Assembly (NCBI GenBank): GCA_028819215.1
Contig: JAPPMG010000054.1
Location: 14,541-78,540 of the forward strand
Direction of reading: 5' to 3'
DNA: 64,000 nt
Source: Bryobacterales bacterium
Lineage (GTDB): Bacteria; Acidobacteriota; Terriglobia; Bryobacterales; UBA6623
This document shows, piece by piece, positions 51,741 to 56,577 of this stretch (its first letter is position 1; each line of letters starts with the position of its first letter). The notes under the pieces are model-generated. The model was not told the origin of the DNA. It saw nothing but the letters and a program-made list of their open reading frames with translations, and ran no database searches. The translations under genes and the position numbers were made by a program.

Positions 51741-52460
51741 CTATCGTCGCCCCACCTTGCCGAGCTGCCAGACCTTCCGAGCGACGTCGGAAGAACCGCC
51801 CTCGCCGCGCGCATCGCGCTTCACCTCGCGCATCAGTTCAGTTGCGCTACCGAAGCACCTGATCTTCTCTGCTCCCCATTCATAGGTCGGCTTTGAAGAA
51901 GTGTTCTGCTCGCCGGCGAAGACCAAACATCCGGTTACTCGCATTCCCGGCGCCCAATCTCGGATGCCCCTGACATTGAGTGCAATTCGCCGCAAGGTCT
52001 CTTGGAAATGCGACATGGGAAGGCGCCCATGCTTTGTTTCGATGACCCATAGCCCGCGCGGCGTCGCTACCAAGTGGTCGATATCTCCAACCTTGGCGAT
52101 ATGCTGTACGTTGTGCGCTACTGCACACCGCTCTCGAGTCAGCGCGTACTCGATCGCCTGTCCGACCCTCTCCTCGGCGCGCACGCCTTTCCTCATGTGT
52201 GGCAATCGCCAGCCTTTCGCGAGTTCGTGCAACGTCGCGCCTAGCGTCGCTGCACCCGGTATCAACACGAGCAAGATCGCCCATCCCGCTCCCAGCTCCA
52301 TGGTGACCATCCCGGCGAGCCCGCCGCAAAGCCATCCGGCTGCGAAAGTCGCAAGGACGGTGGTATCCGCGATTCGGTCAAGGAGCTTTCGGCGAAGCCA
52401 CTCGCCAGGGTTTCGTTTCATTCCGTTTCTCTCAATCCGGCCCAGCACCAAGGCGTTCAT
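51741..52460 (-). CDS. NERD (nuclease-related domain) protein with N-terminal transmembrane segments
   Basis: 239-aa ORF. It has two hydrophobic segments (VLATFAAGWLCGGLAGMV, WAILLVLIPGAATLGATL), then GVRAEERVGQAIEYAL...VGDIDHLVATPRGLWVIETKHGRL. Confidence 0.75.
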   Translation of the reverse strand: MNALVLGRIERNGMKRNPGEWLRRKLLDRIADTTVLATFAAGWLCGGLAGMVTMELGAGWAILLVLIPGAATLGATLHELAKGWRLPHMRKGVRAEERVGQAIEYALTRERCAVAHNVQHIAKVGDIDHLVATPRGLWVIETKHGRLPMSHFQETLRRIALNVRGIRDWAPGMRVTGCLVFAGEQNTSSKPTYEWGAEKIRCFGSATELMREVKRDARGEGGSSDVARKVWQLGKVGRR

Positions 52461-52632
52461 CCAAGTGTAGTTTCCGACCTACGTCATCTCCCCGGAGGTG
52501 GTCCAAGACCGTTCTCCGCTATGTGGCCTCCCGGGGCTGGACTATGTTGTATGCAACTTGCCGCGGATGGCAGCTTGAGGGTTCATTATCGCCGTTGGAC
52601 GATTGGGTATCGGAGGTCATACACTTAGCCCG

Positions 52633-52833
52633 CTACACAGCTGGCTCGTCATTTTGCGCGGCTAAAGTCGCTCCCACGAGCCGATGGATGGTAGTTTCGA
52701 TCGCAAGGATTCGCATGGGTTTGGTGCAGCGCTTGATGTCGCCTCTGAGCTGTTCCGGCAGATTCTTTGAGTGCTGCCGCATACGGTGCTCGATCCAGAG
52801 GCTGGGGCCACGCTCCAGAGCGACACATCCCGG
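52633..52833 (-). pseudogene. C-terminal remnant of an IS256/Mutator-family transposase
   Basis: Found by manual translation; it is too short and lacks a start, so it is not in the track. HSKNLPEQLRGDIKRCTKPMRILAIETTIHRLVGATLAAQNDEPAV* aligns without gaps to the IS256 C-terminal consensus STNLIERLNQEVRRREKIIRIFPNQTSANRLIGAVLMDLHDEW as I remember it. About 17 of 43 residues are identical, including RI, RL.GA.L and DE. No upstream catalytic region or terminal repeats were seen. Confidence 0.5.
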
Positions 52834-52909
52834 CTATTTCCCAAGCCCACCTCCGGCCGCATCGCAGTAAGAGTCATCAATCACTTGGGAGAGAGGGTAT
52901 TCAAACTCT

Positions 52910-52942
52910 AGGTTAATTCAAAATCAAACTTTGAATTAACCT
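52910..52942. promoter_or_regulatory. perfect 13-bp inverted repeat AGGTTAATTCAAA-N7-TTTGAATTAACCT in an AT-rich leader
   Basis: Arms at 52910..52922 and 52930..52942 lie 23-55 bp upstream of the AAA ATPase ATG (52965). This is the only strongly AT-rich stretch in this intergenic region. Confidence 0.45.
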
Positions 52943-52964
52943 AATTTTTCCTAGACTGTGTTCA

Positions 52965-54140
52965 ATGATCGAGCGCGACCTCTACCCAAGGCTAACGGAG
53001 GCGGCCCAGAAGTGGCCGTCGATCACGCTCACTGGGCCGAGGCAGAGCGGTAAGACGACGCTGTGCCGTGCCACGTTCCCGCAGCACCCGTACGCGACAC
53101 TGGAAGCCCCGGACGTTAGGGCCTTCGCTCTTGACGATCCCCGCGCGTTCCTAGCCCAGTTTCCCGAAGGTGCCATCCTTGACGAAATCCAGAGAGCGCC
53201 AGACTTGCTCTCGTACCTGCAGGGCATCATCGACGCAGGCCCGGTGCCTGGTCGCTGGATACTCATCGGCTCGCAGAATCTCTCTCTGCTTCAGTCGGTC
53301 AGCCAGTCGTTGGCCGGAAGGACGGCGGTTCATAGGCTGCTTCCGCTGACGCGAGGCGAAACGATGCGATTTCCCCGGTGTCCCGAGACTCTCGCTGAGA
53401 GTCTCCTCACCGGATCATACCCACGCATATTCGATGCCAATCTCGATGCTGCGGACTGGCTCGGTTCCTACGTCGCCACGTACATCGAACGCGATGTACG
53501 GATGATCAGGAGCGTTGGCGATCTCACGACGTTCCAGCGCTTCGTAGTACTCTGTGCCGGCCGAACCGCGCAGTTGCTCAACTACTCGTCACTAGCCGCG
53601 GATTGCGGCATCTCGCAGCCGACCGCGAAGACTTGGCTCGGTATCCTCGAGACCAGCTATCTCGTCTTTCGCCTCCCCCCGCTTCATGCAAATCTGCGCA
53701 AGCGGCTCGTGAGAATGCCCAAGCTCCATTTCTACGATTCTGGACTTGTCTGCTGGTTGCTGGGTATCCGAACGCCCGAACAACTCCTCACGCATCCGCT
53801 TCGCGGACCGATCTTCGAGACTTGGGTTGCCTCCGAAATTGCGAAACGCTGGGCCAATCGCGGCGAAGCCAGCGGACTATCGTTCTACCGAAATCAGAAC
53901 GGGGCGGAAGCCGACCTTCTCATCGAGCGCCCCTCCGGGGTCACGCTTATTGAAGCCAAATCTGCCGAGACAGCGTCCACACGCCTGCTCGACGGTGCCA
54001 GACGCGTCCGAAGGCAGCTCGACCGAGCGACCGGCCAATGCTCCGTCGTCATAGTCTATGGCGGCGATCAACCGCAGCGCCGCGGAACAGATTGGTTGGT
54101 TCCTTGGAGGGAACTGCACCAGTTTGACTGGGATGCGTGA
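52965..54140 (+). CDS. AAA+ ATPase with C-terminal DUF4143 domain
   Basis: 391-aa ORF with Walker A GPRQSGKTTL and the Walker B-like AILDEIQRAPDLL. The C-terminal half is DUF4143-like (HFYDSGLVCWLLG...GPIFETWVASEI). Confidence 0.85.
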   Translation: MIERDLYPRLTEAAQKWPSITLTGPRQSGKTTLCRATFPQHPYATLEAPDVRAFALDDPRAFLAQFPEGAILDEIQRAPDLLSYLQGIIDAGPVPGRWILIGSQNLSLLQSVSQSLAGRTAVHRLLPLTRGETMRFPRCPETLAESLLTGSYPRIFDANLDAADWLGSYVATYIERDVRMIRSVGDLTTFQRFVVLCAGRTAQLLNYSSLAADCGISQPTAKTWLGILETSYLVFRLPPLHANLRKRLVRMPKLHFYDSGLVCWLLGIRTPEQLLTHPLRGPIFETWVASEIAKRWANRGEASGLSFYRNQNGAEADLLIERPSGVTLIEAKSAETASTRLLDGARRVRRQLDRATGQCSVVIVYGGDQPQRRGTDWLVPWRELHQFDWDA

Positions 54141-54381
54141 AGTTCTGTCGGCGCCGTGAGAGTCGGCGACCACCCAATCGCTGGAGCCAGAGTTATAGCG
54201 CTGTGCCCCAACGGGACATGGAAGCGAGGGCCGACCAACGAGAGAGACACAGCAGCGCCTAACAGACCGACCAGCCCAAACACATCAAATACGGTATGCA
54301 TTTTCGACACAATTTGGCTACGCCATATGGGCACAGTATCGCTGCCCTTAGCGTATGTAACCTGATGGAATGCCGGGTTGT

Positions 54382-54636
54382 CTAATCGGATGTGGTATGC
54401 TCCAATGAACGGTTTCGTGCTCCACCGTGTGTCGCCAGACGACTATGGTTGTGGATCCGAGTCCTATCCCGTCCAAGTGGTGGCTCTAGGTTGAAGGTCG
54501 GCTTAATTTCTACTCCGAGCTTCCTGAGTTCCAACTCAAGCCGCTCATAGGCAGTTACGACGGCGACATCGACACTTGGGTTCTGACTGAATGCCCTGTC
54601 TCGATCCAATAGCAGTTTCTCTTGATTCGTCTTCAT
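54382..54636 (-). CDS. small hypothetical protein, second gene of the protease cassette
   Basis: Track ORF 54382..54681 trimmed to ATG 54636, which lies 1 nt after the protease stop (54638..54640). The protein begins MKTNQEKLLLDRDRAFSQNPSVDVAVVTAYERLELELRKLGVEIKP... The gene is low in GC. No family recognised. Confidence 0.45.
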   Translation of the reverse strand: MKTNQEKLLLDRDRAFSQNPSVDVAVVTAYERLELELRKLGVEIKPTFNLEPPLGRDRTRIHNHSRLATHGGARNRSLEHTTSD

Positions 54637-54637
54637 G

Positions 54638-55486
54638 TTAGAAGTACCCCCTTGTATGCACGAAGGAGAATAGTTGTTCACGACTCATATAATCCTTCAA
54701 TAACTCGAAGTAGAGCTTCACATACTGGTATAGCCTCGAATTAGCCGAGAGATCTTCGATCTGCAGGCCGACCTCGTCACGTAAGGTCCGTATATCGATT
54801 CCACGTGCGTGGGAATGCCACCTGGAAGTTTCGTTGAGTAGGTCTGCAATCTCCTGTGCTCGTGTCACTTTCATCTCATCTGTGACCGGCTTCTTCCTCG
54901 TTTCAGTATTCGTCCACCCCTTAAACTTGTATGTTGAAAGCCATTTAACTAACAGTTCCACGGACAGCTCTCGGGCCTGCTCAAATTGGTATAATTCACC
55001 AAGATCGAGCTTGCTCAGAAGTGCATATTCTGCCGTGCTGAGGTCATTTGTTGCTGCCTTTTTGTTGAGACGTTCGAACTGATTCAAATAGGAAAGTGCT
55101 GGGACTAATTTCCCGTCTTTCTCGATCTGAGGGTCGATTGGTCCTAAACAAGAGAAATAATCCATCATGATGCGGTCTGCGCTCAAGGCAAATATGGTTC
55201 CGGCAGACATTGCGCGGTCCGGTACGATGACCGCAACTTCATCGAAGGCCCACCGCAGAGTCGTAACAATCCGTTCTACAACTTCGACAATTCCTCCGGG
55301 AGTGTCGAGTATTACAGCTATCGAGTTCTTCTTCTCGGAGAGTTTATCTATTGCGTCTCGTATGCGAAGATCGAGTCCAGGAACTATCGGACTGACAATT
55401 GCAACGACATCTGCGTTCAGTTCGGCACCGATGGTTTCAATGTGAGTGTCTAACTCATGCTTGATCTGTGAATCGACCGGTCTCAT
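54638..55486 (-). CDS. Clp/crotonase-fold serine protease, SDH (serine dehydrogenase proteinase, S49-like) family
   Basis: 282-aa ORF. AVILDTPGGIVEVVERIV...VPDRAMSAGTIFALSADRIMMDYFSCLGPIDPQ matches the ClpP/SppA-like oxyanion and catalytic-Ser layout. No signal peptide or TM segment is present. The gene is markedly AT-richer than its surroundings. Confidence 0.7.
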   Translation of the reverse strand: MRPVDSQIKHELDTHIETIGAELNADVVAIVSPIVPGLDLRIRDAIDKLSEKKNSIAVILDTPGGIVEVVERIVTTLRWAFDEVAVIVPDRAMSAGTIFALSADRIMMDYFSCLGPIDPQIEKDGKLVPALSYLNQFERLNKKAATNDLSTAEYALLSKLDLGELYQFEQARELSVELLVKWLSTYKFKGWTNTETRKKPVTDEMKVTRAQEIADLLNETSRWHSHARGIDIRTLRDEVGLQIEDLSANSRLYQYVKLYFELLKDYMSREQLFSFVHTRGYF

Positions 55487-55788
55487 CTAGTTACGATTGG
55501 CAACGTGCGGTTCGCAGGAGTCGATCCGAGGTATCAAGGAGCCACGCCGCAATTCGGTGACGTCGAATCCAGACGACACAGTGTGATCTCAGACCCCTGC
55601 CTTCTAAGTGTACGTTATCTATGGTTGCACGATGGGATATGTCAATGGGCGTGGACGGGCAAGGCCAACGAGACGTCTTCCCAGCAGCGACATGGCTTCG
55701 TATCGACGAGTGGAAGACTTCGAAACGATGCCGTGGACGTCCACGCGACCGGCTTGAAGATCCTGCACGTTCGTCCGAGGCTGAAGTT

Positions 55789-56577
55789 ATGATTCGTGAC
55801 ACAGACGCACTCCGAGCCCTATTGTGCGAGAGCCTCGGCCAAGAAGTGCAAGTCGAACCGCGCCCGGATGGTGCGCTCATGTTGCGCACACACTTTGCGT
55901 TTCCCGATGGCGACCGCCTACCGATTCATGTCTCCATATCAGCGTCGGGCGGCCTTCGACTGTCAGACCGTGGGCATACGCTGATGCGCATCAGTTACGA
56001 CCACGATGTCGACTCATTCATGGACGGTACGCGCGGAATGATCCTAGAGCGCATCATGGGGGAAACCGGGCTTCGCTGGGATGGCGATGGTGGCGTGCTC
56101 TGCGTTGACACCGAGTTCGAGAGCCTACCAGAAGCTATCTTCGCCTTCGGGCAAGCGCTGACAAGGGTCTATGACCTGACGCTGCTCTCCCGTTCCAATG
56201 TCGACTCAACTTTCTATGACGACTTAGCCGACCTCCTCTTCAGATATGTGGGCGAAGCGCAAATCGAACGCGACTTCCAGCCGGCTGTGCCCAGTGCTGA
56301 CGCCTATCCGGTGGACTATCGGATAGAAGGGAAGAGCGGCGTCCCGCTTTTCCTGTTTGGTGTACCGAACCGCGATAAGGTGCGCTTAACTACCATCGTG
56401 TTGTCGCACTTCCACAGGCACGAGTTGCATTTCGAGTCGATTCTTGTTTTTCAAGACCAAGCCGCGATTCCGAGGTTGGACCTTGCGAGGCTATCAGACG
56501 TTGGTGGAGACATGATTTCGTCGCTGGCTTCGCACGACGACTTGAATCGGAAGCTCCTCCAACGCGTCGCAGCTTGA
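55789..56577 (+). CDS. DUF1828/DUF1829-like protein
   Basis: Track ORF 55621..56577 trimmed to ATG 55789 (MIRDTDALRALLCESLG...). The pattern LRTHFAFPDGDRLPIHVSISASGGLRLSDRGHTLMRI resembles DUF1828 as I recall it. The assignment is tentative. Confidence 0.55.
   Translation: MIRDTDALRALLCESLGQEVQVEPRPDGALMLRTHFAFPDGDRLPIHVSISASGGLRLSDRGHTLMRISYDHDVDSFMDGTRGMILERIMGETGLRWDGDGGVLCVDTEFESLPEAIFAFGQALTRVYDLTLLSRSNVDSTFYDDLADLLFRYVGEAQIERDFQPAVPSADAYPVDYRIEGKSGVPLFLFGVPNRDKVRLTTIVLSHFHRHELHFESILVFQDQAAIPRLDLARLSDVGGDMISSLASHDDLNRKLLQRVAA

Follow-up and report, generated by a model that had tools for sequence, protein, structure and literature searches.

Protease-driven immunity is an active field of bacterial research, with gasdermin activation, CHAT/TPR, CalpL and the Lon-like BrxL as examples. 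In the present study, we analysed a stretch of 64,000 nucleotides from a Bryobacterales bacterium (GenBank assembly GCA_028819215.1, contig JAPPMG010000054.1, positions 14,541 to 78,540 of the forward strand; hereafter the window), in which a gene for a predicted serine protease of the SDH family is followed directly by a small gene encoding a protein of 84 amino acids (aa). The described system closest to this pair in composition is FS_HP_SDH_sah of DefenseFinder, reportedly a two-gene anti-phage system of phage-inducible chromosomal islands (PICI) that consists of an SDH_sah protease and a hypothetical protein, and said to go back to work by Fillol-Salom and colleagues in Cell in 2022. The window pair, a PF01972 protease with an adjacent small hypothetical protein, appears to have the same composition. 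Whereas FS_HP_SDH_sah is reportedly carried by mobile elements of Enterobacteria, the clade of the window pair resides in uncultured, largely sponge-associated bacteria, with about one quarter of its loci in restriction-modification (R-M) operons. The initial annotation of the window, made without database searches, held that no system of this composition had been described; FS_HP_SDH_sah, which appears to match the pair in composition, would stand against that claim. The gene name FS_HP_SDH_sah appears in PMC13532340, PADLOC v2 has no model for the system, and the other PICI and DefenseFinder papers in the literature searched make no mention of it.

A second likeness is to the reversed-order type II toxin-antitoxin (TA) systems HigBA, HicAB and MqsRA. 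In these systems, as in the pair, a larger enzyme is encoded first and a small partner second, with translational coupling between them; the partner is folded in its N-terminal part and has its binding region in a disordered C-terminus, an organization that structure modelling predicts for the window partner; and the units are highly mobile, occur in defence islands and prophages, and leave orphan small genes that outlast the enzyme. To our knowledge, no TA toxin is a Clp-fold protease. Two further likenesses are positional. The anticodon nuclease PrrC of EcoprrI is an abortive-infection effector embedded in an R-M locus, as is the pair in some genomes, and the ion-channel-type exclusion system RexAB of phage lambda is encoded directly after cI in a slot expressed in lysogens, as is the pair in E. 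coli. In both cases the proteins are unrelated to those of the pair.

Three findings are reported here. First, both genes are real, co-inherited and translationally coupled. Second, the pair is a horizontally mobile two-gene unit of approximately 1.2 kb that moves between phyla. Third, the genomic context of its homologs supports a proposed defence-like interpretation, in which the pair most likely acts as an accessory anti-phage or TA-like (abortive infection) module.

Coupling and co-inheritance of the two genes

The open reading frame (ORF) of 84 aa had been placed one nucleotide beyond the protease stop codon in the initial annotation, and the junction is confirmed in Table 1; a Shine-Dalgarno-like AAGGGGG sits 10 nt 5' of the small-gene start codon. 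Relatives were compared in a set of 79 loci with protease homologs, one genome per species. In 44 of the 47 loci that could be scored, the partner starts between -4 and +5 nt from the protease stop, and in 31 of the 47 it starts exactly at +1. A tblastn search with the 84-aa product detected a homolog directly downstream of the protease in 52 of the 79 loci, and inspection of the remaining loci revealed ORFs, 55-142 aa long, that share one pattern: N-P-K-[IV]-D, then a helix, then [FY]-x-L-S-[HP]-P-L-[GDN]. In a census of the 79 loci with a profile hidden Markov model, the partner was found on the same strand as, and with one exception directly 3' of, every uninterrupted protease gene of the clade. 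A single locus (L060, 6855-8261) has the partner apart from an intact protease, with approximately 1 kb of intervening sequence, and at another (L061) the contig stops just past the protease gene. Even where protease identity drops to 38-46%, as in E. coli, Rhizobium and Methylosinus, the pairing persists. In addition, a metagenomic representative of 398 aa (P0250) fuses the protease to two tandem small-partner domains, which may reflect either a genuine Rosetta-stone fusion or the loss of a stop codon.

The decay of the pair is asymmetric. The protease is disrupted in ten loci, in 7-8 of which the small ORF is intact, and an intact protease with a destroyed partner was not seen in any locus censused. 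This asymmetry favours the protease as the dangerous component, but it is only suggestive, since the longer protease gene offers mutation a 4.3-fold larger target. Judged by the criterion applied to type II TA systems, the coupled bicistronic order and the fusion would support an interaction of the two proteins, and the decay asymmetry is suggestive.

In one alphaproteobacterial metagenome-assembled genome (MAG; L015, 3143-4312 and 5209-6852), the paired protease lies 1.6 kb downstream of a second SDH protease of 306 aa, which belongs to a phage-like subfamily and has no partner. A similar segment of approximately 70 aa (including ARPG[VI]REVMQVYGGWQGKDRGLDAYRAA) is encoded just 5' of both of these proteases.

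A soluble SDH-type protease

The 282-aa protease ORF and the LDTPGG, AMSAGT and GPIDPQ motifs listed in the initial annotation (residues 59-64, 92-97 and 115-120, respectively) were verified, and the product passes the Pfam threshold for PF01972 (SDH_protease; E=3.1e-20, 72.8 bits against a gathering cut-off of 31.3), with an alignment that covers residues 49-145 only, that is, positions 87-179 of the 286 in the profile. The Pfam model NfeD1b_N also matches weakly (1.5e-9), and the ClpP model PF00574 gives 18.0 bits, under its cut-off of 20.2. The NCBIfam model NF047768 (Clp_like_SDH) aligns over profile positions 73-165 of 260 with 84 bits and does not reach its equivalog cut-off of 250. By these scores, the window protease is a member of a subfamily related to Clp_like_SDH and is not an equivalog. 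The profile phrog_11747, to which no function is assigned, matches residues 51-267 at 1.3e-53 and is the sole match for the C-terminal half. The protein consists of an N-terminal Clp/NfeD-like core (approximately residues 25-145) and a family-specific helical C-terminal region (approximately residues 146-282).

Conservation was assessed in alignments of 36 close homologs and of 14 distant homologs down to 27% identity, the latter including Poribacteria, E. coli, Rhizobium, Methylosinus, three phages and Methanothrix. Ser94, Asp118 and His226 are invariant in both alignments, and the residues invariant in the window protein and its distant homologs are G64, G65, S94, A95, T97, I106, M108, G115, P116, D118, Q120, W182, H226 and R228. 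Ser94 aligns with the serine of the ClpP motif and with that of the AASAGT motif of the 1510-N NfeD protease, its catalytic Ser97. The order Ser94-Asp118-His226 is the SDH-type order for which the family is named, and the product is predicted to be a soluble, catalytically competent SDH-type Clp-fold serine peptidase. Its description in the initial annotation as cytoplasmic and free of transmembrane segments agrees with a hydrophobicity scan (maximum Kyte-Doolittle value 1.39 over 19 residues), and no export signal was seen in the sequence of either the protease or the small protein.

ClpP, SppA, NfeD/1510-N and lambda protein C can be aligned with the window protease at its TPGG oxyanion motif and at the motif of its nucleophilic serine. 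However, the triad of the window protease is Ser-Asp-His, in contrast to Ser-His-Asp in ClpP and the Ser-Lys pair of SppA and NfeD, and, unlike the membrane-bound or self-compartmentalising Clp-fold proteases, the protein has no membrane anchor, no co-inherited ATPase and a unique helical C-terminal half. On the basis of the sub-threshold PF00574 match and the triad order, it is not a ClpP, and the label 'ATP-dependent Clp protease' carried by plasmid homologs is an over-annotation. A sequence search of the PDB with the protease returned marginal NfeD and ClpP matches only, and a Foldseek comparison of its AlphaFold2 (AF2) model with the PDB gave only meaningless matches, with template modelling scores below 0.2.

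The small partner and its conserved tail

The small protein had been described as belonging to no recognisable family, consistent with the absence of a family match in Pfam, NCBIfam, PADLOC and PHROG searches; a PDB sequence search with it returned nothing credible. A profile search of 1.84 billion representatives, in turn, recovered 170 partner clusters at 50% identity, nearly all of 49-104 aa. Members of the family are 60-70 aa long, most commonly 66, and the window copy is longer at 84 aa; both it and its Bryobacterales relatives carry an unconserved, lineage-specific C-terminal extension past residue ~66-75. The conserved pattern is L-E-x-x-L-x-x-L-G-V-E-I-K-P-x-x-x-x-E-P-P-x-G, with the core LGVEIKP..[FY]x[LI]EPPLG and invariant alignment columns at L40, G41, V42, E43, I44, K45, P46, E51, P52, P53 and G55. 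A degenerate form, [FY]-x-L-[SEA]-[PH]-[PS]-[LF], is retained in the partners of Poribacteria, E. coli, Rhizobium and Methylosinus.

The AF2 model of the small protein is of moderate quality (mean predicted local distance difference test score, pLDDT, 66) and was used for secondary structure only. Helices are predicted at residues 4-18 and 24-39, forming a hairpin, with no helix or strand beyond residue 39; the block pLDDT is 75 for residues 41-50 but 59 for residues 51-60, and it does not exceed 59 beyond residue 50. Because regular structure is not predicted after residue 39 and confidence is low past residue 50, the motif would lie in a flexible tail. An extended tail that holds the best-conserved segment of the partner is typical of a docking peptide, and we propose from this model that the segment is a protease-docking or cleavage site.

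The same tail may also be read in another way, in which the small protein is a latent pro-effector and the triggered protease cuts at or after PPLG to release an active hairpin or a basic C-terminal peptide (RxRTxIHNxN). The motif stops at the invariant Gly55, beyond which comes a short stretch that is semi-conserved, much as at a processing site, and the fusion of the protease to two tandem partner domains is polyprotein-like. However, the small protein is highly charged (maximum Kyte-Doolittle value 0.52, with no transmembrane-like segment) and lacks a hydrophobic or known toxic domain, and the orphan small ORFs of E. coli and several MAGs fit a harmless or protective protein better, which makes a pro-effector unlikely. 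A third possibility is a secreted or signalling peptide resembling ribosomally synthesized and post-translationally modified peptides, with the small ORF as the precursor, its conserved leader removed by the protease as leader peptidase. Although the conserved N-terminal part of approximately 55 residues, the boundary Gly and the short C-terminal peptide suit such a precursor, the unit has only two genes, and neither a modification enzyme nor a transporter nor an immunity gene is inherited with them; hypervariability is not seen in the C-terminal peptide, which is semi-conserved; and neither protein bears export signals. We consider a peptide of this kind very improbable.

Horizontal transfer and extent of the mobile unit

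The cassette had been described as the most AT-rich coding stretch of the window and, for this reason, as a likely recent horizontal acquisition, and the present analysis supports both points. The G+C (GC) content is 0.475 for the protease gene and 0.514 for the small ORF, compared with 0.622 for the whole window, and the cassette is the lowest-GC 1.1-kb stretch within it. The GC of the cassette is under that of the flanks in 60 of 62 loci, with a mean difference of 0.11. The closest relative, in another Bryobacterales MAG (L001), is 89% identical in protein and 84% in DNA. The block common to both is approximately 1.2 kb long and includes approximately 140 bp 5' of the protease start; the flanking genes differ even between these two loci, and the window neighbours (ATPase, DUF1828 and NERD genes) are absent from the L001 locus. 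Among more distant loci, the upstream DNA showed no conservation. Flanking direct or inverted repeats and tRNA genes were sought around the cassette and none was found; an Rfam scan of 51-57.5 kb gave no match, and a scan for promoters and terminators gave nothing above shuffled expectation.

A possible third protein of the cassette had been proposed in the initial annotation (54068..54334, with a GTG start and a 73-nt overlap with the ATPase gene). No homolog of this ORF was detectable in any of the 79 loci, L001 included; it falls outside the stretch of DNA common to the window and L001, and the gene calls on the identical public contig do not include it. It was rejected as a member of the cassette on these grounds and is probably spurious, which leaves two genes, not three, in the annotation of the cassette.

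In total, 2065 protease homologs were detected. Proteases of 60-70% identity occur in MAGs of Acidobacteriota, Gamma- and Alphaproteobacteria, Binatia, Gemmatimonadota, Actinomycetota, Dehalococcoidia (Chloroflexota), Nitrospirales (Nitrospirota) and Latescibacterota, and divergent copies (49-55% identity) in at least 16 MAGs of Poribacteria; the 79 loci span at least 10 bacterial phyla. Many MAG titles name sponge-associated taxa (Poribacteria, Spongiihabitans, Poriferihabitaceae and Porisulfidus), and the distribution suggests recent cross-phylum exchange of the cassette within the sponge microbiome. In the Poribacteria loci, cassette GC is near that of the host and flanks; therefore, Poribacteria may be an older home of the cassette.

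Restriction-modification operons and other neighbours

Clustering of neighbouring genes across the loci yielded one recurrent family, the PF01555 DNA methylases, in 18 loci, and a ResIII helicase-nuclease in 6. PADLOC types the methylases as type III, with a best E value of 5e-185. A type III methylase is the immediate neighbour at 11 of 70 upstream and 3 of 69 downstream positions, and an HmaB/DUF1156 methylase is the immediate downstream neighbour in three more loci; a type III or DUF1156 methylase directly adjoins the cassette in about one quarter of the loci. In eight loci (L020, L035, L044, L047, L055, L064, L065 and L078), the pair is embedded in a mod/res operon on the same strand, for example in the order Res, protease, small gene, Mod in L020, where Res overlaps the protease start, and in the order Mod, protease, small gene, Res in L055.

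This embedding raises the question of whether the pair serves the R-M system itself, setting the level of Res or Res-Mod by proteolysis (restriction alleviation or establishment control) and allowing the safe entry of a type III-like R-M system into an unmethylated host. The eight embedded loci, the methylase as the commonest neighbour, and the Poribacteria loci, which are mostly methylase-adjacent and in which the similarity of cassette and flank GC is consistent with long residence, all agree with such a role. However, no type III-like mod/res was detected within approximately 6 kb in about three quarters of the 79 loci, the window and L001 included, nor beside the E. coli prophage copies, and other defence genes (TIR, 8xMP and DUF488) are also found between res and mod. 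Because of these insertions, the R-M operon looks like an insertion hotspot and not like a functional partner, and the res-mod interval seems to be a hotspot for accessory defence genes. Control of R-M levels is thus, in our judgement, quite unlikely, and equally so the corollary that stand-alone copies, that of the window among them, are remnants or act in trans.

Between res and mod in L035 (4242-5842) and L044 (697-1722), we observed an 8xMP membrane protein and TIR proteins, one of which is a fusion with a phage Mu F-like domain. Elsewhere, the neighbours include CTD6, MC2 and transposases (L081, the same locus as L001), multiubiquitin/ThiF/DUF6527 genes adjoining a Rhizobium plasmid copy, and a Fic gene near the Methylosinus copy.

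Prophage and phage copies

The pair is present in 20 of 5426 complete E. coli genomes. Three lambdoid prophage contexts were examined, two chromosomal and one plasmid-borne, representing two immunity types, and in all three the pair lies directly downstream of a cI (LexA-family) repressor gene, the slot that rexAB occupies in lambda. HicAB is found beside the pair in one of the three. The E. coli protease WP_021518647.1 (300 aa, 'SDH family Clp fold serine proteinase') is 41% identical to the window protease over 87% of its length by tblastn and 38% identical in the multiple alignment, with the same Ser/Asp/His residues, and its partner WP_167851737.1 (56 aa) abuts the protease stop and has the related motif G-L-I-N-K-P-V-F-T-L without the EPPLG core of the window protein. 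The E. coli relatives are named as the Clp_like_SDH equivalog in RefSeq, in contrast to the window protein with its 84 bits against the 250-bit cut-off, and they belong to a prophage immunity region, whereas the window pair lies in a chromosomal island. In three E. coli genomes (strain 48, L090:5014-5184; H62; and H64), the protease is deleted and the 56-aa partner stands alone directly after cI; a further genome (H61) has a 5'-truncated protease. The cI adjacency in E. coli prompted a repressor-cleaving (ImmA-like) protease as a candidate, but as a general role this was rejected, since a repressor is missing from the vicinity of most copies.

Distant homologs without a partner occur in phages, namely Gordonia phage BeeGee (gp31), a Shewanella Mu-like phage and Porphyromonas phages, in the last case beside HicAB. 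Homologs lodged in head-morphogenesis modules had been named in advance as the observation that would turn the protease into a remnant of a prohead (head-maturation) protease; on such a reading, the small protein would be scaffold-like. None of the six phage or prophage homologs examined lies beside portal, capsid or terminase genes; they occupy accessory (moron) positions instead. The protease does match ClpP-related head-maturation profiles weakly, namely NF045542 (Clp_rel_HeadMat; 27.3 bits against a cut-off of 120, E 2.9e-6) and, marginally, phrog_53 and phrog_1684 (E 3e-5 to 1.5e-4). However, these scores are far under the cut-offs and reflect the common Clp fold, no head gene adjoins any homolog examined, and an IMG/VR search gave no match. 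A prohead origin is therefore exceedingly improbable.

Proposed mode of action

Because homologs occur in R-M operons and in the cI-adjacent slot of E. coli, a defence or TA-like module is the most likely reading, and we assign a probability of roughly 0.55 to the pair being an accessory anti-phage or TA-like (abortive infection) module. The defence or toxin-activation logic suggested in the initial annotation fits the genomic company of the pair, which includes type III R-M systems, Hma/DUF1156 methylases, the cI slot and defence islands. Herein, we propose how such a module could work. The tail of the small protein would occupy the substrate groove of the protease, acting either as a pseudo-substrate inhibitor or as a substrate that is turned over slowly, and this occupancy would keep the protease silent. 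Infection would deplete, displace or modify the partner and thereby free the protease, which would then cleave host or phage proteins and stop the infected cell or the phage cycle.

A bolder form of this proposal is possible, although we hold it to be doubtful. In this form, the pair would represent a new mechanistic class, a Clp-fold Ser-Asp-His effector held by a pseudo-substrate mini-protein through its KPx[FY]xLEPPLG tail, which was ancestrally a PrrC-like guard in type III R-M operons, fired when anti-restriction factors disabled the R-M system, and spread through the sponge microbiome as a 1.2-kb cassette, reaching more than 10 phyla.

Several observations weigh against the reading of the pair as a defence or TA-like module. 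First, our literature search returned no functional study of SDH-type proteinases and no homolog of demonstrated function, and the kinship of the pair to the already named FS_HP_SDH_sah system, of which it would probably be a distant member widespread in the environment, is suggested by composition and a gene name. Second, approximately 70% of the immediate neighbours are heterogeneous, ordinary housekeeping genes, and PADLOC v2 gave no convincing model for the window proteins or for five homologous pairs or proteases, its best matches being marginal (the L020 protease matched AbiEi at 8e-4, and one partner matched Cas3d at 4e-3). Third, the decay asymmetry is statistically weak (P roughly 0.05-0.12 by our estimate). 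Fourth, the AF2 model of the protease, built from a low-diversity alignment of 36 sequences, is poor, with a mean pLDDT of 63 and values under 50 in the active-site region.

If the pair does serve defence, it would be a compact protease-based immune module of two genes, with a conserved partner motif and, in Ser94, a residue for knock-out, and the control of a Clp-fold protease by a mini-protein would be a new type of protease-driven immunity. The breadth of the family, with its 2065 protease relatives and 170 partner clusters, adds to this interest. The proposal is directly testable in E. coli, where lambdoid prophages have the pair in the slot of rexAB. Moreover, the sharing across phyla shows that a cassette of the defence type has recently been exchanged within a single habitat.

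Other features of the window

The coordinates of the cassette and of its neighbours are given in Table 1. The cassette lies within a small low-GC stretch (51741-56577) beside other genes of the defence-island type, encoding a NERD-domain protein, an AAA_14/DUF4143 ATPase and a DUF1828 protein.

Table 1. Features of the mobile cassette and of the surrounding low-GC stretch, in window coordinates.
Feature	Position	Strand	Basis
Transferable unit	54425..55626	minus	blastn of window 50-60 kb against the loci; sole DNA in common with L001
Protease gene, 282 aa	54638..55486	minus	ORF call; Pfam, NCBIfam and PHROG matches
Ser94 codon (AMSAGT), predicted nucleophile	55205..55207	minus	Invariant in alignments of close and distant homologs
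Asp118 codon (GPIDPQ), predicted triad aspartate	55133..55135	minus	Invariant in homologs down to 27% identity
His226 codon (WHSHARG), predicted triad histidine	54809..54811	minus	H226 and R228 invariant in distant-homolog alignment
Coupling junction: AAGGGGG 54647-54653, protease stop TAA 54638-54640, one spacer base, ATG 54634-54636 (TAA-c-ATG, 54640..54634)	54634..54653	minus	Sequence
Small partner gene, 84 aa	54382..54636	minus	Conserved directly 3' of protease in related loci; AF2 model; profile search
Invariant motif KLGVEIKPTFNLEPPLG, small-protein residues 39-55	54472..54522	minus	Invariant alignment columns; no regular secondary structure in AF2 model
NERD-domain protein	51741-52460	minus	Low-GC stretch 51741-56577
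AAA_14/DUF4143 ATPase	52965-54140	plus	PADLOC candidate PDC-S01 at 1e-98
DUF1828 protein	55621-56577	plus	Weak PADLOC PDC-M24B match

The initial annotation had linked the cassette to the convergent AAA ATPase gene and asked whether the pairing of protease and small ORF and their adjacency to DUF4143 ATPases or DUF1828 proteins would be conserved. The pairing of protease and small ORF held, but the adjacency did not: DUF4143 genes are nearby in 2 of the 79 loci, where they are unrelated to the window ATPase (28% identical), and a DUF1828 homolog in 1 of the 79. A functional link to the DUF4143 ATPase, DUF1828 or NERD genes was rejected because these genes are not conserved beside the homologs, and the adjacent ATPase, although it sits beside the cassette, is incidental to it. 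A perfect 14-nt inverted repeat, TAGGTTAATTCAAA(7 nt)TTTGAATTAACCTA, which is AT-rich and operator-like, was also observed at 52909-52943, approximately 20 nt 5' of the start of the ATPase gene.

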